Shown here: piece after piece, positions 51,011 to 64,000 of the stretch
Layout of the letters: each line of letters opens with the position of its first letter
Position numbering within the stretch: the stretch's first letter is position 1
Origin: Clostridia bacterium
GTDB lineage: Bacteria; Bacillota; Clostridia; Oscillospirales; Acutalibacteraceae
Direction: 5' to 3'
Assembly: GCA_900755895.1 (NCBI GenBank)
Contig: CAAEIG010000052.1
Span: forward strand, 26,268 to 90,267
Length of the DNA: 64,000 nt
Notes under the pieces: generated by a model
The model's database searches: none
Told to the model about the DNA's origin: nothing
Seen by the model: only the letters and a program-made list of their open reading frames with translations
Position numbers and translations under genes: made by a program

Positions 51011-51721
51011 TCAGCGTTCCCCTCCGCACGCCCGCACAAAAGCAGAAAAAATCTTCCGGCTATTTTCATCACTCAGCCGGGAAAACTCCGGATGCCACTG
51101 CACTGCCAAAGCAAACCGGTGCTCGGGCAGGTACACCGCCTCCACCATGCCGTCCGGCGCTTTTGCTGCCACTTGCAGACCTTTGCCCAAGTTTTTGATC
51201 CCCTGATGGTGGTAGGAGTTCACCCCCATCTCTGTGAGCCCCACCGCCTCATACAGCGGTGTGCCCGGCTGGATCTCCACAAGATGGGCGACCTTGTCAT
51301 AGGGCGGCGTCTCATGGTGCTCCACATCACTGGGGCATTGGGTGGGAATATCCTGGTACAGGTCGCCTCCCAGCATCACATTGAACAGCTGAATCCCTCG
51401 GCAAACGCCCAGCAAAGGCTTGCCTGTCTGGAGGGCCAAGGGGAAAAACTTGGCCTCCATGCCGTCCCGTTGAGGGCAGAGAGTGCCACAGGTTTCATCA
51501 GGAGTCTGTCCGTATAGAGCGGGGTCCACATCGTGGCCGCCCGGAAAAAGAAAGCCATCAAAGGTGTCGGCATAGCGCCTCAGAGCTTCCTCATCAGTGG
51601 TCAGAGGCAGAATCACCGGAGCTGCCCCGGCATCCTCCAAACCCTGGGCATAACCGGGAAGCATCCAGTAGCTCTCCAGTTTTTCATCGTAAAGAGAGAC
51701 AATGGCGATCATCGGTTTCAT
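51011..51721 (-). CDS. Class-I glutamine amidotransferase-like gamma-glutamyl hydrolase (peptidase C26, PuuD-like)
   Basis: LGVCRGIQLFNV (nucleophile Cys) ... HHQ ... WHPEF. Confidence 0.75.
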   Translation of the reverse strand: MKPMIAIVSLYDEKLESYWMLPGYAQGLEDAGAAPVILPLTTDEEALRRYADTFDGFLFPGGHDVDPALYGQTPDETCGTLCPQRDGMEAKFFPLALQTGKPLLGVCRGIQLFNVMLGGDLYQDIPTQCPSDVEHHETPPYDKVAHLVEIQPGTPLYEAVGLTEMGVNSYHHQGIKNLGKGLQVAAKAPDGMVEAVYLPEHRFALAVQWHPEFSRLSDENSRKIFSAFVRACGGER

Positions 51722-51820
51722 AATATCACCTCGTTGGTTGATTCACAGAGTACCCGCCTAGCATACCACACTCACAACGGAATTTGCAATATCCCAGCTC
51801 AAAAGCTGCAGAAAAACACG

Positions 51821-51849
51821 TTGCACCCGTCGAAAATCTTCTGTATAAT
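51821..51849 (+). promoter_or_regulatory. Sigma-A promoter TTGCAC-17-TATAAT for the esterase pair
   Basis: ttgcacccgtcgaaaatcttctgtataat. Confidence 0.5.
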
Positions 51850-51883
51850 GGATAAAAACATCAAAAAAGGACGTGTTGCTTTT

Positions 51884-52708
51884 ATGGCTTTGTTCCAGTG
51901 TAGCTTCTTTTCCAAATCCCTGATGCGGACGGTGCCCATTCAAGTGGTGCTGCCTACAGATAAACAGCTTCCCAACGGGGAGCCTCCCAAGGGCCCCTTC
52001 AAGACATTATACCTGCTCCACGGAATCTTCGGCGACCAGACCGACTGGGTTTGCGGCACCCGCGTTCAGAGTTGGGCCCAGGATCGCAACCTGGCGGTGG
52101 TCATGCCCGCCGGTGACAACAGCTTCTATGTGGACCAGCCCAAGGCCAGCGCCTACTATGGCCGCTTTATCGGCCAGGAGCTGGTAGACTTCACCCGGCG
52201 CACCTTCCCCCTATCTGATAAGCGGGAGGACACCTTTATCGGCGGCCTGTCCATGGGCGGATTTGGGGCCATTGTCAACGGCTTGCAGAATCCGGGGACC
52301 TTTGGAGCAGTGTGTGCACTTTCCTCTGCTTTGATTCTGGATTCCATGATGACTCACACGGAATACACGGATTTTCTTATGACCAACAAGGGCTACTATG
52401 AATCCGTCTTTGGAGACCTGTCCCAGGTGCGGGGCGGCGTCAACGACTACGACGCCCTGGCGGAAAAGGTGGCCCCTCTGGCAGAAAAACCCCGCTTTTA
52501 CATGGCCTGCGGCACGGAGGACGGGTTGATTACCGTAAACCGCCAGTTCCGGGATCACCTGATGAAGCTGGGCTATGACGTGACCTATGTGGAGGGCCCC
52601 GGCATCCATGACTGGTACTTCTGGGATGAGTACATCTTGAAGGTTCTGGAATGGCTGCCTCTGGGGGAATCCCAGCAGGGCGTCAGCTCTGGAAATGTCA
52701 ACGCTTAA
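51884..52708 (+). CDS. Esterase-D/tributyrin-esterase-family alpha/beta hydrolase (paralog 1)
   Basis: MALFQCSFFSKSLMRTVPIQVVLP...YLLHGIFGDQTDW...GLSMGG (nucleophile elbow GxSxG) ...GPGIHDWYFWDEY. The track ORF is overextended through the promoter. Confidence 0.7.
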   Translation: MALFQCSFFSKSLMRTVPIQVVLPTDKQLPNGEPPKGPFKTLYLLHGIFGDQTDWVCGTRVQSWAQDRNLAVVMPAGDNSFYVDQPKASAYYGRFIGQELVDFTRRTFPLSDKREDTFIGGLSMGGFGAIVNGLQNPGTFGAVCALSSALILDSMMTHTEYTDFLMTNKGYYESVFGDLSQVRGGVNDYDALAEKVAPLAEKPRFYMACGTEDGLITVNRQFRDHLMKLGYDVTYVEGPGIHDWYFWDEYILKVLEWLPLGESQQGVSSGNVNA

Positions 52709-52720
52709 GGAGGATTCGCA

Positions 52721-53533
52721 ATGGCACTGCTGCATCTGAATTTTGAGAGTCAATATTTGCAGAATAATACGGACCTGTCCATCATCCTGCCGGACAGGCC
52801 CCACACCACCGACGCCAAATACTTCTACAGCTCCGGGAAAAAGTATCCGGTACTGTGGCTGCTTCACGGCACCTTTGGGGACCACACTGACTGGGTGCGG
52901 AAATCCAACATTGAACGGTACGCCTGCGAGAAAAATGTAATTGTGGTCATGCCCAGCGTCATGAACTCCAACTACCTCAATTGGCCTGGATTCGGCACTG
53001 GGTACAACGCCTGGGACTACCTCTTTGACGAGCTGATGCCCTTGGTACACAGCTGGTTCCCCGCGTCCGACAAGCGGGAGGACAACTTCATTGCCGGCCT
53101 CTCCATGGGCGGACGGGGCGTGTTCCAATATGTGGCGGGCCGGCCTGAACTGTTCGCCGGAGCCGCGGTACTGTCCTGCTCCCCCAACAATCTCCACGAG
53201 CTTCAGTTGGATCCCAACGCTTCCGGAGATCAGGCAACATTCAACCAGCGGACGCGGAATCTGATACAAAACTTTGGCGGCATGGAAGGCTATCTCCAAT
53301 CCCCCGCCAACGTCTGGGACAAGCTCCCCGAGTTGGTTCAGAAGGGCAATCTGCCCCGGCTTTATTTCTGTATCGGCACAGAAGATTTCCTCTACGACAA
53401 CTACAAGGCTTTCAAAGAATACGCTCAGCAGATTGGTCTGGCTGCCACCTTTGAGGAAACCCCGGGCTACGCTCACGAATGGGCATTCTGGGATCTCTTC
53501 ATCCAGAAAGCCCTCACCTTCTTTGGGCTGTGA
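52721..53533 (+). CDS. Esterase-D/tributyrin-esterase-family alpha/beta hydrolase (paralog 2)
   Basis: MALLHLNFESQYLQNNTDLSIILP...WLLHGTFGDHTDW...GLSMGG...YAHEWAFWD. Strong RBS TTAAGGAGGATTCGCA-ATG. Confidence 0.75.
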   Translation: MALLHLNFESQYLQNNTDLSIILPDRPHTTDAKYFYSSGKKYPVLWLLHGTFGDHTDWVRKSNIERYACEKNVIVVMPSVMNSNYLNWPGFGTGYNAWDYLFDELMPLVHSWFPASDKREDNFIAGLSMGGRGVFQYVAGRPELFAGAAVLSCSPNNLHELQLDPNASGDQATFNQRTRNLIQNFGGMEGYLQSPANVWDKLPELVQKGNLPRLYFCIGTEDFLYDNYKAFKEYAQQIGLAATFEETPGYAHEWAFWDLFIQKALTFFGL

Positions 53534-53642
53534 CCCGCACCTGTACCTCAAGCTCCTCTGCCGAATTCAAAAGGCAGGTCCTTGACGCCGGGCTCTTCCC
53601 CTTGCTATTCTAAAAAAGAAAAACAGCAAGGGAGGAAACTCG

Positions 53643-54290
53643 GTGACTGGAAAGAAACTTGTGAAAGTGTGGGGGCCGATTGTGGGCCTTTTGAGCTGTC
53701 TTCAGCTCCTTCGAATCGGCCTCAAGGCTCTTGTCTTCACAATTGTCCCACGGACAATCTTCAGCGATACTGTGTGCAGTTGTATCTACATGGCTGCGAT
53801 GACCGCTCTCCTTCTGGCATGGTGGAAACACCGTGGAGAGCACCTCGCTCTGTTGCCACGACGTTTTGGAAAGAGCTACGTGATCGCTACAATGCTTGCT
53901 GCTGCGTTCCTCGTCAGCACACCACTCATCACTAGGAATACCTCCCCTCAAGCTCTCTTGTCCTTGGCCTACCACGCAGTGATCACAGTGGCATTTGAGG
54001 AGCTGGTGTTCCGAGGCTGGGTTTGGAAGGAATTAAGTTCCATCGATAATGGAACATTCCCTTGGCTGGGATCCTCCATCTTATTTGGTCTCTGGCACTT
54101 GGGCTACGCAGACACAGTGTTGTGGCGGTCTTCCCTGTTCTTCCCAGATTCCGACATCTTGACCATCCTATTTTGGAAGGTGGTCACCGGTCTGATTCTG
54201 GGCCTGGCTTTCGGGCTGCTGCGGTGGAAATGTAAAAATGCCTACGCTCCTGCCTTAGCCCATCTGGTGATCAATGCCTTTGGCAGCTGA
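53643..54290 (+). CDS. CPBP-family (CAAX / Abi-type) intramembrane metalloprotease
   Basis: EELVFRGW (motif 1 EExxxR), FGLWH (motif 2) and LAHLVINA (motif 3). GTG start after GGGAGG. Confidence 0.75.
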   Translation: MTGKKLVKVWGPIVGLLSCLQLLRIGLKALVFTIVPRTIFSDTVCSCIYMAAMTALLLAWWKHRGEHLALLPRRFGKSYVIATMLAAAFLVSTPLITRNTSPQALLSLAYHAVITVAFEELVFRGWVWKELSSIDNGTFPWLGSSILFGLWHLGYADTVLWRSSLFFPDSDILTILFWKVVTGLILGLAFGLLRWKCKNAYAPALAHLVINAFGS

Positions 54291-54510: not shown

Positions 54511-54892
54511 AAGTGACGGTTTGCACATTGTCATCAGCAACCAAAACGGAAAACCGATTTATGAACAGATCACGGAGCAGATCAAGGGATTGATCATCTC
54601 CGGGGAGCTGCGGGAAGGCGATCCGCTGCCCTCCATGCGGGTACTGGCAAAAGAGCTGCGCATCAGTGTCATCACCACCAAACGTGCCTATGAGGAGCTG
54701 GAGCGAGAGGGATTTCTCTACTCTCTGACAGGCAAGGGAAGCTTTGTGGCAGGAAAAAACACGGAGTTTCTCAAAGAGGAACAGCTCCGCAAAGTGGAAG
54801 AACATCTGCAGGAAGCTGTCCACGCAGCGCAACTCTGCGGCATGGAGAAACAGGAGCTCTTGGATACCCTGAACCTGCTGTGGGAGGAATAA
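54511..54892 (+). CDS. GntR-family (YtrA-subfamily) transcriptional regulator
   Basis: TTG start after GGAGAGGAAG. LHIVISNQNGKPIYEQITEQIKGLIISGELREGDPLPSMRVLAKELRISVITTKRAYEELEREG is the GntR wHTH. The short C-terminal domain is typical of YtrA-type regulators. Confidence 0.75.
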
Positions 54893-54938
54893 GCTCACAG
54901 CATCCCAAAGCCCCATTCTAGAAGCAAAGGAGATATTT

Positions 54939-55784
54939 ATGGAAAATGCCATTGAACTGCGCAATCTGCGCAAAAGCTACAAGCACTTCACTCTGGACGG
55001 CATCAGTCTGACACTGCCTTTAGGGTGCATCATGGGGTTTATCGGGGAAAACGGTGCTGGCAAAAGTACCACCATCAAGGCCATGCTGGGATTGATCCGT
55101 GGTGACAGCGGAGAGATCCGGCTGCTGGGAAAAGATCCCCTTGTGGACCGCTCCGTCATGGAGGAGGTGGGCATGGTGTTGGATTCCGGATTCTTTCCTT
55201 CGGAAATGAACGCCAAGCAGCTGGGAAAATCTTTTTCTAACATCTATAAGGCATGGGATCAGGCCGCCTATTACGGATACCTACAGCGGTTTGACATTCC
55301 TCTGGGGAAAAAGGTCAAAGAGTATTCCCGAGGCATGGTGATGAAATTCTCTCTGGCTGTGGCGCTGTCCCACGGAGCAAAGCTGTTGCTTTTGGATGAA
55401 GCCACCTCCGGGCTGGACCCTATCATCCGGGACGACATTCTGGATATTCTCTATGACTTTATCCAGGATGACCAGCACAGCGTGTTTCTCTCCTCTCACA
55501 TCACAGCGGATTTGGAGAAGATCGCCGATTACATTGCCTTTATCCACAAGGGAAAGCTGATAATGTGCGGCGAAAAAGATACCCTCCTGGAAACCTATGG
55601 CCTATACCATTGTTCCAAGGACCAGCTTGCCCAGCTGGATCCCTCCGCAGTGGCAGGATACCGCCAAAACGAGTTTGGCGTGACCGCCCTGGTCAAGCGC
55701 TACCGAATGCCCGGAAACTTTACCGTAGAGCACGCCACACTGGACGACATCATGCTCTACAGCATCAAGGGCAGCCATCTTTGA
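54939..55784 (+). CDS. ABC transporter ATP-binding protein
   Basis: Walker A GENGAGKST, signature LSGGM-like (YSRGMVMKFSLAVAL), Walker B LLLLDEATSGLD. Confidence 0.85.
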   Translation: MENAIELRNLRKSYKHFTLDGISLTLPLGCIMGFIGENGAGKSTTIKAMLGLIRGDSGEIRLLGKDPLVDRSVMEEVGMVLDSGFFPSEMNAKQLGKSFSNIYKAWDQAAYYGYLQRFDIPLGKKVKEYSRGMVMKFSLAVALSHGAKLLLLDEATSGLDPIIRDDILDILYDFIQDDQHSVFLSSHITADLEKIADYIAFIHKGKLIMCGEKDTLLETYGLYHCSKDQLAQLDPSAVAGYRQNEFGVTALVKRYRMPGNFTVEHATLDDIMLYSIKGSHL

Positions 55785-55801
55785 GAAGGGAGTTGTTTAG
55801 T

Positions 55802-56440
55802 ATGTTAGGTCTGCTCTACAAGGACTTTTACACCTCGAAAAAGGAACTGATCCTCACAGGATTTATGGCACTGCTCTTTGTGGTATTCAATGTGGCCACC
55901 GACCAGGCGGAGATGTTGGGGCCCTCCATCGGAGTCCTGATTTCCGTGGGGAGCTTGGTGCCCACCTACTCCATCCACTATGACAAAACAAACGGTTGGG
56001 ACAAATTCATCTGCGCCTCCCCCATCAGCCGAAAACAAGTGGTGCTCTCCAAGTATCTGGCCGGTCTTATTACCATCGTTGTAATCAACCTGGTCATCGT
56101 AGTGGACAACATGGCTGTGGGATCCCCCATCCCCGTCTGGGGGTATGCTGCCCTGCTGTGCATCACCCTCTTCCTCCAAGCTGTAATGCTCCCCGTGTGC
56201 CTGAAGCTGGGTCAGAATTTTGTGGTGGCTGTGTTTTTGATTGTGGTGTTCTTGCCCATCGGCGCTCTGTTTTTCCTCAACCGAGTAAACATTCTCACCG
56301 ATGCAGCCATTGAGGGCGCCTTTGACTTCATCCAGCAAAACGCCGCCTCCCTGAGCCTGTTGGGCATTGTTGTAGCGGTAGTACTCTACGCAATCTCCTT
56401 CCTGATAAGCCTGCGGTACTACAAACACATGGAGATGTGA
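55802..56440 (+). CDS. ABC-2-type permease (6 TM), partner of the upstream ATPase
   Basis: MLGLLYKDFYTSKKELILTGFMALLFVV... 212 aa of hydrophobic helices. RBS GAAGGGAG. Confidence 0.6.
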   Translation: MLGLLYKDFYTSKKELILTGFMALLFVVFNVATDQAEMLGPSIGVLISVGSLVPTYSIHYDKTNGWDKFICASPISRKQVVLSKYLAGLITIVVINLVIVVDNMAVGSPIPVWGYAALLCITLFLQAVMLPVCLKLGQNFVVAVFLIVVFLPIGALFFLNRVNILTDAAIEGAFDFIQQNAASLSLLGIVVAVVLYAISFLISLRYYKHMEM

Positions 56441-56630
56441 TTTCCAAAACACATTTCATCGTAATATACAAACTTCTATAAGCTCGGTGCTTCTCAGCGC
56501 CGGGCTTTTTTCATATCTTCCCACACCAGCTTTAAACTTTGATTAAGCTTGGGCAAGTATCCTTATTTTCAAGAAAGGCAATGCCCCAACGCATCTTTCC
56601 CACACTATCCCGTCTAAGGAGGCTCCACCT

Positions 56631-57362
56631 GTGAAATATCAGGACACATTTCAACGCTATGAAATCAAATACCTGCTGAACAGCCGTCAAAAACAGGCCA
56701 TCCTCCAGGCCATGGAACCCTATATGAAGCTGGATACCTATGGAAGAACCACCATTCGCAACGTCTACTTTGACACGGATAACTTCCGGCTCATCCGCCG
56801 TTCTCTGGAACGTCCTGCTTACAAAGAAAAACTGCGGATTCGCAGCTATCAACAAGTAGGTCCCCAAGATCCGGTTTTCGTGGAACTGAAAAAGAAATAT
56901 AAGTCCGTCGTTTACAAACGCCGGCTCTCCCTTCCGGAATTCCAAGTGCTGACCTGCTTCCAAGAGGGGACTCCTCTGCCGGTCAACTCTCAGATCGCCC
57001 AAGAGATCGAATATTTCCGAAGGTATTACGGGTCCTTGCAACCCAAGGTGTTCCTCTCCTATGAGCGAGAGGCTTTTTTCGCGTTGGATGACGGAGACTT
57101 CCGGGTCACCTTTGATGAAAACATCCTCTACCGCACAGAAGAACTCTCTCTGAAAAATGGCATATCCGGACTCCCTCTGCTGGAGGATCACCAGACTTTG
57201 ATGGAACTCAAAACGTCAGGGGGCATCCCATTGTGGATGAGTCACGTACTCAACCAGCAGAGGGCATTTAAAACATCTTTTTCCAAATATGGCTCGGCGT
57301 ATCAACAGCTGGTGCGCAATGAAATGCAGCCCCGGCAATTTAGGAGGTATCTGTATGCTTGA
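56631..57362 (+). CDS. VTC-domain (vacuolar-transporter-chaperone-type polyphosphate polymerase fold, CYTH-like) protein
   Basis: MKYQDTFQRYEIKYLLNSRQKQAILQAMEPYMKLDTYGRTTIRNVYFDTDNFRLIRRSL...KLRIRSY...FVELKKK... is the pattern typical of bacterial VTC proteins. RBS TAAGGAGG. Confidence 0.7.
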   Translation: MKYQDTFQRYEIKYLLNSRQKQAILQAMEPYMKLDTYGRTTIRNVYFDTDNFRLIRRSLERPAYKEKLRIRSYQQVGPQDPVFVELKKKYKSVVYKRRLSLPEFQVLTCFQEGTPLPVNSQIAQEIEYFRRYYGSLQPKVFLSYEREAFFALDDGDFRVTFDENILYRTEELSLKNGISGLPLLEDHQTLMELKTSGGIPLWMSHVLNQQRAFKTSFSKYGSAYQQLVRNEMQPRQFRRYLYA

Positions 57363-58050
57363 CACACTTTTCTCCGGACTGTTTGACTCGGAACTGACCA
57401 CTGTGATCGCAGTCCAGGATTTTCTGCTCTGCGTGGGATGCGCATTGGTGATCGGCCTGATTCTGGCCGGCTGCTACATGTACCGCACGCGGTATACAAG
57501 AGGCTTTGTGGCAACACTGGCTCTGCTGCCCGCAGTGGTCTGTGTCGTCATCATGATGGTCAACGGCAATGTGGGCACCGGCGTGGCTGTGGCAGGTGCG
57601 TTCAGCTTGGTACGCTTCCGCTCCGTTCCCGGATCAGCCAAGGAAATTTGCATTATTTTTCTCGCCATGGGCACTGGCTTAGTGGTGGGTATGGGCTATC
57701 TGGGATACGCCTTTCTCTTTGCCATCTTGCTGGGAGGTATGACTGTAGTTTACAGCCGGTTGGGATTCGGCGCCCGCAAAAAAGGCTCCCTCTACAAGAC
57801 ACTTCACATCACGATTCCGGAGGATTTGGACTACACCGGCGTCTTCGATCCGATCTTGGAAGAATACACTTCCGACTTTGAACTGACTCAAGTGCGCACA
57901 ACCCACATGGGCAGCTTGTTCCGACTGACCTATGATCTCACGCTGTCCAGTCCGGGTATTGAAAAAGAACTGATCGACAAGCTCCGCTGCCGAAACGGCA
58001 ATTTGGAGATCACGGTTTCCAAACAGGAAACCACCATCGCAGAACTGTAA
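57355..58050 (+). CDS. DUF4956-family membrane protein
   Basis: 4 predicted TM helices, then a soluble C-terminal domain ...LHITIPEDLDYTGVFDPILEEYTSDFELTQVRTTHMGSLFRLTYDLTL. Overlaps the VTC stop by 8 nt. RBS AGGAGGT. Confidence 0.65.
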   Translation: MLDTLFSGLFDSELTTVIAVQDFLLCVGCALVIGLILAGCYMYRTRYTRGFVATLALLPAVVCVVIMMVNGNVGTGVAVAGAFSLVRFRSVPGSAKEICIIFLAMGTGLVVGMGYLGYAFLFAILLGGMTVVYSRLGFGARKKGSLYKTLHITIPEDLDYTGVFDPILEEYTSDFELTQVRTTHMGSLFRLTYDLTLSSPGIEKELIDKLRCRNGNLEITVSKQETTIAEL

Positions 58051-58063
58051 AAGGAGGGCATTC

Positions 58064-60076
58064 ATGAAACCAAACGTAATTTTAGCCATACTCCTGAGCT
58101 CTCTCCTGGCATTTTCCGGATGCACTGCGGCGGATTCTCAAGAGAGCACATCCTCTGCCCCGGAAGTCACCACCACAGAAACCGTTACCCAGGACACCTC
58201 TGTACAGAACACTGCTTCTGTGGACACGTCGGAAATGTTTACCGACAGGGATATGGAAATCGGCTATGACGAGGAAACCTGTATCCCCATCACCCTTTCC
58301 GGCGACAGCGCCACCTGTGATTCCGATGCGGTAGTCATCTCCGATTCCACCGTTACCATCACAGAAGAGGGGACCTATCTCCTCTCTGGAACACTCAACG
58401 GCATGGTAGCGGTTCAAGCTGCCGACACCGCCAAAATTCAGCTGGTATTAGATAACGTGGAGATCACCAACGCCACAGGAGCTGCAATTTATGTGGCGGA
58501 AGCGGACAAAGTGGTGATCACAACCGCATCTGATTCAGAAAATACCCTCTCCAACGGCGGAGAATACGTGGCTATTGATGACAACAACATTGACGGGACT
58601 ATCTTTTCCAAAGCCGATCTGACCTTGAACGGAGCCGGGGTGCTCACTGTCAACGCCCAGGCGGGTCATGGGGTGGTCTCCAAGGACGATCTGGTCCTCA
58701 CCAGCGGGACTTACAACATCACCGCTGCCAATCAGGGACTCTCTGGAAAGGACAGCGTTCGCATCGCCAGCGGCACTTACTCCATTGAGTCCGGGAAAGA
58801 CGCCATTCACGCAGAAAACACCGAAGACTCCAGCCTTGGATTTCTCTATATCGCCAATGGCACTTTCCAGCTCACTGCGGAAGGTGATGGCATGAGTGCC
58901 AGTTCCTACCTCTTGGTGGAAGACGGCGACTTCACCATAGAAGCCGGAGGCGGCAGCGCCAACGCTGCTACCCAGAGTACCACCATGGAATTTGCTCCTG
59001 GAGGCCAAATTGAAACCACCGACACCGAGGAAACGACTCCCAGCACCAAGGGAATCAAGGCTGTCACAGCATTGACACTCCAAGGGGGAAGCTACTCCAT
59101 TGATACGGCGGATGATGGACTTCATTCCAACGGTGATGTAACCATTTCCGGCGGGGAATTCACCATCGCCTCCGGGGATGACGGTATCCACGGCGACCAG
59201 GCTGTGACTGTGTCCGACGGCACCATCCAGATCACCCAAAGCTACGAGGGCATTGAGGGGCTATCCATTGACATCACCGGAGGCACCATCAGCCTGGTTG
59301 CCAGCGACGATGGGCTCAATGCTGCCGGTGGAACAGACAGCAGCGGCTTTGGCGGCAGGGGTGGCGATATGTTTGCCGCCACCGAAGGAGCTTATATCTC
59401 CATTTCCGGCGGAACTATGCACATTGACGCTTCCGGCGATGGGATTGACTCCAACGGCTCTCTGACCGTCTCAGGCGGAGAAACTTACGTGTCCGGTCCC
59501 ACCGACAGTGGAAACAGCTGTCTGGATTACGCCAGCGACGCAACCATCAGCGGAGGAATTTTCTTGGCCTCTGGATCTTCTGGCATGGCACAGAATTTTG
59601 GTGACACTTCCACCCAGGGGGTCATGATGGTCACCGTGGATTCCGCCTCGGCAGGCAGCACGGTGTCCCTCACCGATTCCTCCGGCACAGAGTTGACATC
59701 TTGGCAGCCGGAGAAGGATTTTAACTCCGTCATCATCAGCTGTCCTGAAATCACAGAAGGATCCACCTACACGCTGACCGTCAACGGCACTTCCACAGAG
59801 ATCACCATGGACAGTCTTGTTTACGGTTCCGGAGGCGGTATGGGTGGTCTCGGCGGGGGCAAAGGAGGCTCCATGGGAGGCCCCGGAGGCACTCCCGGAG
59901 AGGCTCCCAATGGTTCCTGGGAGAGTGGTGGCGGCACAGAAACTCCTGGGGAACCTCCTGAAATGCCAGAGGGTGACACGGGCGTCCCCCAGGATTTCGG
60001 AGAACCTCCGACTGCTCCTGACGGTACCGAGGGTGGCTCCCTCCAAATTAGCGGAAGCGACAGTCAATCCGTGTAA
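58064..60076 (+). CDS. Cthe_2159-like (PF14262) beta-helix carbohydrate-binding lipoprotein with Gly/Pro-rich C-terminal tail
   Basis: Lipobox LLAFSGC. Many tandem ~25-aa beta-helix-like repeats (DDGLHSNGDVTISGGEFTIASGDDGIHGDQAVTVSDGTIQI...). C-terminal GGGMGGLGGGKGGSMGGPGGTPGE low-complexity region. Confidence 0.55.
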   Translation: MKPNVILAILLSSLLAFSGCTAADSQESTSSAPEVTTTETVTQDTSVQNTASVDTSEMFTDRDMEIGYDEETCIPITLSGDSATCDSDAVVISDSTVTITEEGTYLLSGTLNGMVAVQAADTAKIQLVLDNVEITNATGAAIYVAEADKVVITTASDSENTLSNGGEYVAIDDNNIDGTIFSKADLTLNGAGVLTVNAQAGHGVVSKDDLVLTSGTYNITAANQGLSGKDSVRIASGTYSIESGKDAIHAENTEDSSLGFLYIANGTFQLTAEGDGMSASSYLLVEDGDFTIEAGGGSANAATQSTTMEFAPGGQIETTDTEETTPSTKGIKAVTALTLQGGSYSIDTADDGLHSNGDVTISGGEFTIASGDDGIHGDQAVTVSDGTIQITQSYEGIEGLSIDITGGTISLVASDDGLNAAGGTDSSGFGGRGGDMFAATEGAYISISGGTMHIDASGDGIDSNGSLTVSGGETYVSGPTDSGNSCLDYASDATISGGIFLASGSSGMAQNFGDTSTQGVMMVTVDSASAGSTVSLTDSSGTELTSWQPEKDFNSVIISCPEITEGSTYTLTVNGTSTEITMDSLVYGSGGGMGGLGGGKGGSMGGPGGTPGEAPNGSWESGGGTETPGEPPEMPEGDTGVPQDFGEPPTAPDGTEGGSLQISGSDSQSV

Positions 60077-60107: not shown

Positions 60108-60674
60108 ATGGAAGTATTTTTCTGGGGCTTTCTATGGGGTATACTTTTGGGGATCCCCTCAGGGCTATCCAGCGCCCACTTACTTCTGCGGGTACGAGAA
60201 CAGGGATTCCCCGCTGCTTTCGCCACAGGACTGGGAACCTCCTGCGGAATCACCTGCTACGCCGCACTGAGTTTGCTCCTGGTTTCTTGGTTGAACGAGT
60301 ACTCCCAAGCAATCCTATTTGTGGCGGAAATCATCGTTCTGCTGGTGGCGATTCGGCGGATTCTCTGGCCCCATCGCGACTGGCTGGAAGAGGAGGTTTT
60401 TCCTACAACCTACCACTTTTTGTCAGCCATTGTGGTAGCTGTCAGTTGCCCCGGGACTTTGGCAGCTTTGCTCCTTGGGCCTGCATCCGGGATGGTTATC
60501 GGCAACTCTTTAGGACTGCTGGCAGGAATTCTAATAGGCGCCTTGTTGTGGAACTGCTTTCTCATTCTTTTGGGTACCCTGCGTCCAAAGCTCTCCCTGT
60601 CCATGATTGATCGGGGATGTGGTATTGTGCTGGGGGCGGCAGGTACGGCTACTTTTCTGTGGGGCCTTCTATAA
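60108..60674 (+). CDS. LysE/RhtB-family amino-acid exporter
   Basis: 188 aa, 6 TM. MEVFFWGFLWGILLGIPSGLS... RBS AAGGAGG 10 nt upstream. Confidence 0.65.
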   Translation: MEVFFWGFLWGILLGIPSGLSSAHLLLRVREQGFPAAFATGLGTSCGITCYAALSLLLVSWLNEYSQAILFVAEIIVLLVAIRRILWPHRDWLEEEVFPTTYHFLSAIVVAVSCPGTLAALLLGPASGMVIGNSLGLLAGILIGALLWNCFLILLGTLRPKLSLSMIDRGCGIVLGAAGTATFLWGLL

Positions 60675-63165: not shown

Positions 63166-63373
63166 ATTGATCTCCTCCTTGAATCTTCCATAAAAAATGA
63201 CGCAAAATCAGAGAATAAGTAGGGATACTGCGATTATACTCGCATGGATGGCGTAAGTAAAGCGCTTTTCACAACTTCTTTTGATGGGTTTTATCCGGGA
63301 GAAACCCCTTTCCATTCTCTTGACAAGACTGTCCATCTTCGTTACCCTGATTAACAGACAAGGAGGGAGCATT

Positions 63374-64000
63374 GTGAAAACCATTGCGATCATTGAGGAC
63401 GATCAAACCATCGGAGCCCTACTGGAGGAAGTGCTCCTCAAAGAGGGATACCGCGTACTTCGGGCATACTCCGGCACCGAAGCTGTCTACCTGCTGTCCC
63501 ATCAAAGGCCGGATCTGGCTCTGCTGGATTTGATGCTCCCCGTCCTCTCCGGTGAGGAAGTTCTCCCCCATCTGGAGGGAATCCCCGTGATTGTGGTCAG
63601 CGCCAAAGTGGGTGTGGATGACAAAGTCCGCCTTTTGCTGGAGGGCGCGGCGGACTACATCACCAAACCTTTTGAGCTGAAAGAGCTTCTGGCGCGCATT
63701 CAGGTACAGCTGCGCAAAAGTACCGCACCATCCGGTTCCCTGTTGGAATCCGGTGATCTGCGCTTGAATATCTCTTCCCACGAGGTCACTGCGGGGCAAA
63801 CCGTGGTTCACTTGACAAAGACCGAATACGCTATTTTAAAGCTGCTGATGCAGAATCCCACACAGGCGGTGGCCAAATCCATCATCCTGGACAGGATCGC
63901 CCAGGACACCCCGGACTGCACGGACAGTTCCCTCAAGCAGCATGTGAGCAATCTGCGGAAAAAGCTGCGGGAGGCCGGGGCACAAACCACCATTGAAGCG
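63374..64000 (+). CDS. OmpR-family response regulator (3' end lies outside the window; absent from the ORF track because it has no in-window stop)
   Basis: GTG start 5 nt after AGGAGGGAG. VKTIAIIEDDQTIGALLEEVL...RPDLALLDLMLP (phospho-acceptor Asp) ... winged helix LTKTEYAILKLLMQNP. Confidence 0.8.
   Translation, partial: MKTIAIIEDDQTIGALLEEVLLKEGYRVLRAYSGTEAVYLLSHQRPDLALLDLMLPVLSGEEVLPHLEGIPVIVVSAKVGVDDKVRLLLEGAADYITKPFELKELLARIQVQLRKSTAPSGSLLESGDLRLNISSHEVTAGQTVVHLTKTEYAILKLLMQNPTQAVAKSIILDRIAQDTPDCTDSSLKQHVSNLRKKLREAGAQTTIEA

Follow-up and report, generated by a model that had tools for sequence, protein, structure and literature searches.

A conserved VTC, DUF4956 and Cthe_2159 gene trio of gut Clostridia and its candidate control by a CiaRH-like two-component system

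The DNA analyzed here comprises 64,000 nucleotides of contig CAAEIG010000052.1 (positions 26,268 to 90,267 of the forward strand) from a member of the Acutalibacteraceae (Clostridia bacterium, GenBank assembly GCA_900755895.1). This whole stretch is termed the window, and coordinates refer to it unless a locus or plasmid is named. At positions 56631 to 60076 it contains three co-directional genes that encode a VTC-domain protein, a DUF4956 membrane protein and a lipoprotein of the Cthe_2159 family. The gene order VTC, DUF4956, Cthe_2159 recurs across species to an extent far beyond chance, and the copy in the window is an ordinary member of a strongly conserved trio family, representing a variant of the VTC polyphosphate (polyP) polymerase theme that is not categorically new. 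According to the sequence comparisons, the trio is mostly linked to a CiaRH-like two-component system and a putative operator; this main context was absent from the original prediction made for this DNA, and in our preferred reading the trio would be the main target of the neighbouring two-component system in most of these genomes.

Genetic organization and conservation of the trio

The VTC gene (56631 to 57362, plus strand) starts with a GTG codon that is preceded at a distance of 8 nucleotides by the ribosome-binding site AAGGAGG (56616-22), and it encodes a basic protein of 243 amino acids (isoelectric point 9.6) without a membrane helix. Its TGA stop codon (57360-62) sits inside the start of the DUF4956 gene (57355 to 58050, plus strand; ATG at 57355), which results in an overlap of 8 nucleotides; this second gene specifies a membrane protein of 231 amino acids, and its ribosome-binding site, AGGAGG, is located at 57343-48. 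The lipoprotein gene (58064 to 60076, plus strand; 670 amino acids) starts 13 nucleotides after the TAA codon of the DUF4956 gene, and this gap is filled by a further AAGGAGG ribosome-binding site. The coordinates of the three genes, the overlap and the gap are exactly those of the original prediction, and the VTC, DUF4956 and PF14262 identities that it had proposed were all recovered by Pfam profiles.

The conservation of the trio was examined by a species scan with one genome for each species, in which at least 559 genomes proved to encode a protein closely related to VTC. Further analysis was directed at the best 80 loci, which span Oscillospiraceae, Lachnospiraceae, Christensenellaceae, Erysipelotrichaceae and other families. 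Wherever a locus provided sufficient sequence, the VTC gene is followed on its strand by the DUF4956 gene, and a Cthe_2159 gene is third in order in nearly all of the loci. The anticipated synteny thus holds across Oscillospiraceae, Lachnospiraceae, Christensenellaceae and others, with varying flanks. Sequence identity amounts to 63-81% for DUF4956, the most conserved of the three, to 58-74% for VTC and to 35-65% for the lipoprotein. The 8-nucleotide overlap of the VTC and DUF4956 genes is kept in 45 of 63 loci, and the trio arrangement persists where VTC identity falls to 38-40%. The genes flanking the trio in the window, i.e. an operon of GntR and ATP-binding cassette (ABC) transporter genes, a gene for a protein of 188 amino acids and a flavodoxin gene, are not conserved and are common to two close relatives only.

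When 1.84 billion representative proteins were searched exhaustively, the family was found to comprise 5,846 clusters (50% identity) with E≤0.001 as limit and 820 clusters with E≤1e-30. Gut Oscillospiraceae and Lachnospiraceae are the main carriers of the operon family, and the locus is present in the cultured isolates Massiliimalia massiliensis (L009), Bianquea renquensis (L076) and Cuneatibacter sp. (L017). A bin assigned to Bacteroidota, in a record titled Paludibacteraceae (L072), likewise contains all three genes, with identities to the window of 61% for VTC and 74% for DUF4956, which reflects either mis-binning or horizontal transfer. A plasmid search returned four distant DUF4956 matches only, three of them on megabase replicons, and thus gave no sign of plasmid carriage; the only true plasmid match is a DUF4956 homologue with 46.5% identity at positions 54691-55338 of LR962858.1, an unannotated 98-kb plasmid of Enterococcus faecalis. 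Three chimeric open reading frames (P0126, P0245 and P0252) join a truncated VTC domain to a truncated Cthe_2159 domain and have no DUF4956 part. They were considered as fusions indicating a physical coupling and were rejected since their domains are truncated; they are probably operon deletions or assembly artefacts. A role of the trio in anti-phage defence was likewise dismissed, as no PADLOC match was obtained.

Predicted properties of the three proteins

The VTC protein matches the Pfam family VTC (PF09359) with an E-value of 2.7e-44 and 151.9 bits (cut-off 23) over profile positions 1-234 of 235; NCBIfam contains no model for VTC or DUF4956. A profile built from 39 diverse bacterial members identified yeast Vtc4 as the top PDB match (E=1.3e-11). 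The AlphaFold model of the window protein (pLDDT, the predicted local distance difference test, of 91.6) was compared with known structures by Foldseek, and ranks 1-13 were all occupied by Vtc4, Vtc3 or Vtc2 with template modelling (TM) scores up to 0.73, Vtc4 being first with 0.72; ygiF, the CYTH cyclases and other tunnel enzymes scored below Vtc4. In yeast Vtc4, the triphosphate and Mn2+ ligands K200, R264, R266, K281, Y359, R361, E426, S457 and K458 are needed for polyP in vivo, and K458 is the sole listed residue that is replaced in the inactive Vtc2 and Vtc3 (bioRxiv 10.1101/2023.01.27.525886). The first six of these residues correspond to K13, R69, R71, K87, Y144 and R146 of the window protein in a hidden Markov model (HMM) alignment. 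For the C-terminal part, PDB searches with a fragment or a short profile produced noise, and E426, S457 and K458 were instead mapped to E192, S218 and K219 by alignment with fungal Vtc4 fragments, in which the fungal pattern LEVK...P.W...KFSKF aligns with the bacterial MELK...PLW...SFSKY. All nine Vtc4 positions, of which the original prediction had singled out the basic tunnel residues, are therefore retained; eight of them are invariant across the diverse bacterial alignment, and Y144 is the majority residue at its position.

The VTC protein carries a net charge of +11 and consists of a single Pfam domain without a hydrophobic segment, an SPX domain or C-terminal DUF202 helices. Accordingly, it belongs to the family of the Vtc4 catalytic domain and not to the eukaryotic VTC complex architecture. 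Judged by sequence and predicted model, it is a protein of the Vtc4-type catalytic domain family with what that chemistry needs, and it is predicted to be the catalytic subunit of the module. As a separate observation, the representative protein P0221 (351 amino acids) combines a complete VTC domain with a weak N-terminal match to a receiver domain that stays under the Pfam cut-off; should this fusion be genuine, it would mean that a VTC enzyme is controlled directly by a phospho-relay.

The same data bear on the possibility that the tunnel enzyme is not a polymerase and hydrolyses or transfers phosphate, for instance as tripolyphosphatase, nucleoside triphosphatase or cyclase or by phosphorylating a wall polymer or lipid, so that the trio would serve envelope modification or signalling without polyP. 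Tunnel metalloenzymes perform many reactions with one basic tunnel (PMC4641920), and strand 1 of the bacterial proteins still carries the classical CYTH motif E-x-K (E11 and K13), where Vtc4 has T198. The neighbouring genes described below, which include those for a phosphodiester glycosidase and a polyprenyl-phosphate glycosyltransferase, would also fit such a function. The closest match in fold and sequence is nevertheless Vtc4 and not ygiF or a CYTH cyclase, and the polymerase-specific S-K motif (S457-K458 of Vtc4) is invariant in the bacterial family. We regard an activity other than polymerization as unlikely.

The second protein of the trio matches DUF4956 (PF16316) with 48.9 bits (cut-off 30.6). 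The original prediction of a DUF4956 protein with four membrane helices was right as to the membrane location, and the topology has to be extended to 4-5 predicted helices and a cytoplasmic C-terminal domain of about 85 amino acids that is ferredoxin/ACT-like. Similarly, four membrane helices and a C-terminal ACT domain were described for the DUF4956 homologue of Streptococcus intermedius (PMC12345266). The best 120 homologues are proteins of 231 amino acids with at least 74% identity, the closest of which are named DUF4956 by NCBI; the nearest named relative stems from an Acutalibacter metagenome-assembled genome (88% identity). Two segments are invariant: a glycine-rich stretch, MMVNGNVGTGVAVAGAFSLVRFRSVPG, which contains the motif FSLVRFRS with two arginines, and the motif RCRNGNLE in the C-terminal domain. 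Foldseek found nothing significant for the DUF4956 model. A relationship to MgtC/SapB was considered and rejected, as no Pfam match to MgtC was obtained even at E≤10; the fold shared with MgtC/SapB is the generic ferredoxin/ACT fold that also occurs in ribosomal protein S6 and many other proteins. Residues 161-223 gave a sub-threshold Pfam match to Ppx_C, the C-terminal domain of exopolyphosphatase (E=0.072, 13.6 bits), which is most likely noise.

A comparison with the yeast VTC complex (Vtc4/Vtc3/Vtc1) revealed common features in the Pfam VTC catalytic domain, the predicted tunnel fold, the nine ligands including the lysine of the catalytic subunit, and the pairing of a soluble tunnel domain with a membrane component. 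In contrast to the yeast complex, the bacterial enzyme lacks the SPX domain and DUF202-type helices, its putative membrane partner is the separate DUF4956 protein, and a lipoprotein is added. The mode of control would also differ, i.e. a bacterial two-component system for the trio and inositol pyrophosphates for yeast VTC.

The third protein was assigned to Cthe_2159 (PF14262) with an E-value of 3.6e-99 in two stretches, and its residues 76-299 match the crystal structure of Cthe_2159 (4PEU/4PHB) with E=1.9e-32. The Pfam description of this family states that Cthe_2159 binds cellulosic and pectic polymers. The protein starts with a signal peptide containing the lipobox LAFSG|C, which is followed by a linker rich in serine and threonine, a double parallel beta-helix and a tail rich in glycine and proline; (G/A/S)DDG(I/L)(H/N) motifs are repeated along the beta-helix. 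The mature lipoprotein contains 96 aspartate and glutamate residues versus 13 lysine and arginine residues, resulting in a net charge of about -82 to -83 and an isoelectric point of 4.05. A lipobox was detected by pattern in 58 of 70 homologues and by eye in most of the remaining ones, and the homologous lipoproteins have a median net charge of -62 (range -81 to -42). At a net charge of about -82, direct binding of a polyanion by the lipoprotein is impossible unless cations bridge the two. Its composition suggests that it is well suited to bind divalent cations, and such extreme acidity would suit a cation-mediated binding of acidic polymers.

Candidate operator, linked two-component systems and neighbouring genes

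The spacer in front of the VTC gene contains a candidate response-regulator operator (56531 to 56547, plus strand) with the direct repeat TTTAAA-CTTTG-ATTAAG (TTTAAA-N5-ATTAAG), which has the geometry of a CiaR box, and a candidate -10 hexamer TATCCT (56558 to 56563, plus strand) located 10 nucleotides past the second repeat. In related loci, TATACT or TATAAT is present as -10 hexamer at the same distance. A simple sigma-70 scan called no promoter at 56558 to 56563, as is expected for an activator-dependent promoter without a -35 element. An alignment of the intergenic region with the close relatives L088 and L089 revealed that the operator and the -10 hexamer are, besides the terminator of the upstream operon, the only conserved part of the spacer; the operator of L089 reads TTTAAG-CTTTG-ATTAAG. 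The terminator (56480 to 56513, plus strand) belongs to the upstream GntR/ABC/ABC-2 operon and is composed of a hairpin with a 12-bp stem at 56480-56507, including seven G-C pairs, followed by TTTTTT. The hairpin is likewise conserved in L088 and L089. It sets the trio apart from the upstream operon, in agreement with the predicted termination of that operon, and along with the conserved island of operator and -10 hexamer it supports the previously assumed promoter of the trio.

A TTAAG direct repeat with a period of 10-11 bp, followed after 9-12 nucleotides by a TAnnnT hexamer, was found upstream of VTC genes, and this repeat precedes the VTC gene in 44 of 68 loci, compared with 0.26 expected in shuffled sequences. 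Both strands of 2.5 Mb of locus sequence contain 78 repeat sites, 41 of which are located before VTC, nine before two-component genes and three before a gene for an HtrA-like protein. The published consensus of CiaR binding sites is NTTAAG-N5-TTTAAG at a distance of 10 nucleotides before the -10 hexamer (PMC3091779). Clustering of the neighbouring genes showed that in about 60 of the 80 loci an OmpR-type response regulator of about 225 amino acids and a histidine kinase of about 410-450 amino acids are encoded directly 5' of VTC, either co-directional with it or divergent. The recognition helix of the linked regulators, VVWVYISYLRKKL, is identical in 9 of 13 positions to that of CiaR, VVEVYVSKVRKKL; NCBIfam gave only sub-threshold matches of the linked regulator and kinase to other models of the OmpR family.

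These findings resemble the streptococcal CiaRH regulon in the direct repeat, its spacing and its distance of 10 nucleotides to the -10 hexamer, in the size and recognition helix of the regulator, and in the presence of an HtrA-like gene in the same operons of several loci. The pneumococcal htrA gene is controlled by CiaR (PMC10197876). The likeness of the clostridial system to CiaRH is one of motif, regulator size and recognition helix, and the window has no such system nearby. Control of the trio promoter by a CiaRH-like system is therefore put forward as a hypothesis, and the trio of the window appears to have moved from its usual two-component system yet to have kept the operator. To our knowledge, no VTC trio belongs to the streptococcal CiaRH regulon. 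A separate module that begins at position 63347, extends to the end of the window at 64000 and continues beyond it (15221-19679 of L001) encodes an OmpR-type regulator, an ABC ATPase, two ABC-2 permeases and a histidine kinase of 301 amino acids, and it looks like a module of the peptide-antibiotic sensing and immunity type. Its regulator is 32% identical to the trio-linked regulators and is thus not the cognate one.

The operons are extended in several loci. An HtrA-like protease gene is sited between the kinase gene and VTC, and other extensions encode a polyprenyl-phosphate glycosyltransferase of the GT2-GtrA type, an NAGPA phosphodiester glycosidase, a small membrane protein and a small alarmone synthetase. 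In L009 (8941-9972 and 13096-16123) and likewise in L002, L007 and L076, the HtrA-like gene precedes VTC and the extension genes follow the lipoprotein gene, encoding the GT2-GtrA and NAGPA proteins, a membrane protein of about 140 amino acids and an alarmone synthetase with a RelA_SpoT domain. The location of an alarmone synthetase gene beside that of a putative polyP enzyme is intriguing. In L068, L072, L074 and L075, a gene located two to three genes 3' of the trio encodes a product that appeared MgtC/SapB-like by eye.

Downstream of the trio in the window, a gene for a multi-pass membrane protein of 188 amino acids (60108 to 60674, plus strand) begins 31 nucleotides after the lipoprotein gene; it has its own ribosome-binding site, and no terminator is located between the lipoprotein gene and its start. 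The gene follows the trio in L088 and L089 and is absent from the 80 wider loci, and its product has no match in Pfam, NCBIfam or PADLOC. It probably represents a fourth operon gene that is specific to this lineage. Directly 5' of the trio, the operon at 54521-56440 (plus strand) encodes a GntR protein (123 amino acids), an ABC ATPase and an ABC-2 permease and ends with the strong terminator mentioned above. It is syntenic with the trio in the closest relatives only, and a similar GntR/ABC pair lies about 7 kb from the trio on the opposite strand in L076. Further upstream (51533-54290), two tandem esterase genes (PF00756) and a gene for an Rce1-like CPBP intramembrane protease form a block that is syntenic in close relatives. 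The window lies on a metagenome contig of 115 kb (ENA ERZ27239599), and its remaining gene content is ordinary chromosomal, including genes for ribosomal proteins, Obg, a phosphotransferase system and glycogen phosphorylase. Genes for glycoside hydrolases are frequent, and those flanking the trio are not conserved neighbours in the 80 loci.

A possible envelope function of the trio

The trio may constitute a self-contained envelope-stress operon, in which the VTC protein makes polyP, the DUF4956 protein couples this synthesis to the membrane and possibly to export, and the acidic lipoprotein has its role outside the cell, probably by way of bound cations; this proposal is tentative, and we consider its chances to be somewhat short of even. 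The cytoplasmic VTC enzyme would build polyP from a nucleoside triphosphate, presumably ATP by analogy with Vtc4, in a tunnel reaction dependent on Mn2+ or Mg2+. The DUF4956 protein, co-made by translational coupling, would hold the enzyme at the membrane and, in the role of the unrelated channel of yeast VTC, would take the growing chain and pass it to the outer face, and its ACT-like cytoplasmic domain might serve as sensor of a regulatory ligand. On the outer face, the acidic beta-helix lipoprotein would hold or organize the exported polyanion through bound Ca2+ or Mg2+, and both together could form a cation-buffering layer, similar to teichoic acid, that is switched on by envelope stress. 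A coupling of polymer synthesis to export had already been suggested in the original prediction, and we likewise infer it here.

The evidence on the lipoprotein can also be read in another way, namely that polyP stays in the cytoplasm for stress or storage purposes, that DUF4956 anchors the enzyme and regulates it by its ACT-like domain, and that the lipoprotein is a separate, co-regulated surface protein such as an adhesin binding glycans or cations. The retained active site of VTC agrees with this reading, an ACT-like domain fits the role of a regulator, the acidity of the lipoprotein speaks against direct polyP binding, and the Cthe_2159 family is annotated as carbohydrate-binding. What such a purely cytoplasmic function leaves unexplained is that the lipoprotein gene is tied to the VTC and DUF4956 pair in essentially every locus, across families and down to a VTC identity of 38%, and that the trio appears to be under an envelope-type two-component control beside genes for HtrA-like and wall-glycan proteins. 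It is judged rather unlikely.

A link of the trio to CotH-family kinases, claimed in the original prediction, did not emerge. The annotated genes of the window do not include one for CotH, as had been noted before. None of the recurrent families obtained by neighbour clustering of the 80 loci is CotH, a direct search for CotH having not been made there, and five further Pfam-annotated contexts of the trio contain no CotH gene. The co-occurrence was thus seen neither in the window nor among the recurrent neighbours, and the connection reported in the literature concerns the VTC and DUF4956 genes in Pel loci and in NELoc-2 and not the Cthe_2159 trio (PMC7112168, PMC2879425). The accessory genes of Gram-positive pel operons encode a 'poly-phosphate polymerase' (VTC, named 'PPP'), DUF4956, CotH and DUF4832 (PMC7112168), and NELoc-2 of Clostridium perfringens contains a pair of VTC and DUF4956 genes beside CotH (PMC2879425). 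The trio shares with the pel accessory genes of S. intermedius (SIR_1592-1594) and with NELoc-2 the VTC and DUF4956 pair and the cell-surface context; it differs from them in having a Cthe_2159 lipoprotein instead of a secreted CotH kinase as third partner and in the absence of a pel locus. In S. intermedius, mutants deleted for either the DUF4956-like gene or CotH aggregated only half as much in artificial sputum medium, and the authors found their three-gene arrangement in Pel loci only (PMC12345266). From these reports, the trio might be regarded as an accessory module of an exopolysaccharide or plant-glycan system, with VTC and DUF4956 supporting a surface glycan and the beta-helix protein binding or processing pectic or cellulosic polymers. 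The accessory position of VTC ('PPP'), DUF4956 and CotH in pel operons (PMC7112168), the decrease of Pel-dependent aggregation upon deletion of the DUF4956-like gene (PMC12345266), the match of the lipoprotein to the Cthe_2159 crystal structure and the frequency of glycoside hydrolase genes in the window are in line with this idea. Against it, no pel, CotH or other polysaccharide synthase gene occurs with the trio in the window or is recurrent in the 80 loci, and the flanking glycoside hydrolase genes of the window are not kept beside the trio elsewhere. We consider a glycan-accessory function very unlikely.

Several observations weigh against the proposed envelope-stress operon with polyP synthesis and export. 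The searchable literature reports no activity for any bacterial VTC protein. The model of the DUF4956 protein is of low confidence (pLDDT 66), its structural matches arise only by way of the generic ACT-like domain, and no resemblance of the protein to the channel of yeast VTC could be detected. The lipoprotein is itself a strong polyanion that would repel polyP without a cation bridge, and its role could equally be unrelated to polyP. With respect to regulation, no cognate two-component system was detected from the left end of the window to about 9 kb past its right end on the contig, and the first repeat of the window operator has an A where streptococcal CiaR boxes need a G. Finally, no aggregation defect was reported upon deletion of the homologous polyP polymerase gene SIR_1593 of S. 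intermedius (PMC12345266); in view of the defects seen after loss of the DUF4956-like gene or of CotH, a simple linear pathway is disfavoured for that system.

Reviews of polyP metabolism assign VTC to eukaryotes as their polymerase and name PPK1 and PPK2 as the bacterial ones (PMC12526157, PMC10657179), and the searchable literature contains no paper naming VTC and DUF4956 together; transcriptome studies mention DUF4956 as an incidental entry of tables only. In its most specific form, the proposal reads that gut Clostridia possess a VTC-like polyP synthase-translocase with an unrelated DUF4956 subunit, that surface export is commanded by a CiaRH-like system, and that the product is used or organized by an acidic lipoprotein, the place of which is taken by a secreted CotH kinase in other clades; in this complete form it is doubtful. 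If true, it would add a second, so far unrecognized bacterial polyP route to PPK1 and PPK2 and a source of an extracellular phosphoanhydride polymer, and it could explain the genetic link of secreted CotH kinases to a 'polyphosphate polymerase'. Owing to its predicted operator and linked two-component system, the trio is directly open to experiment in the cultured isolates. If active, the trio would represent a new envelope-tied polyP pathway of bacteria and would provide a simple two-protein model of coupled polymer synthesis and membrane passage.

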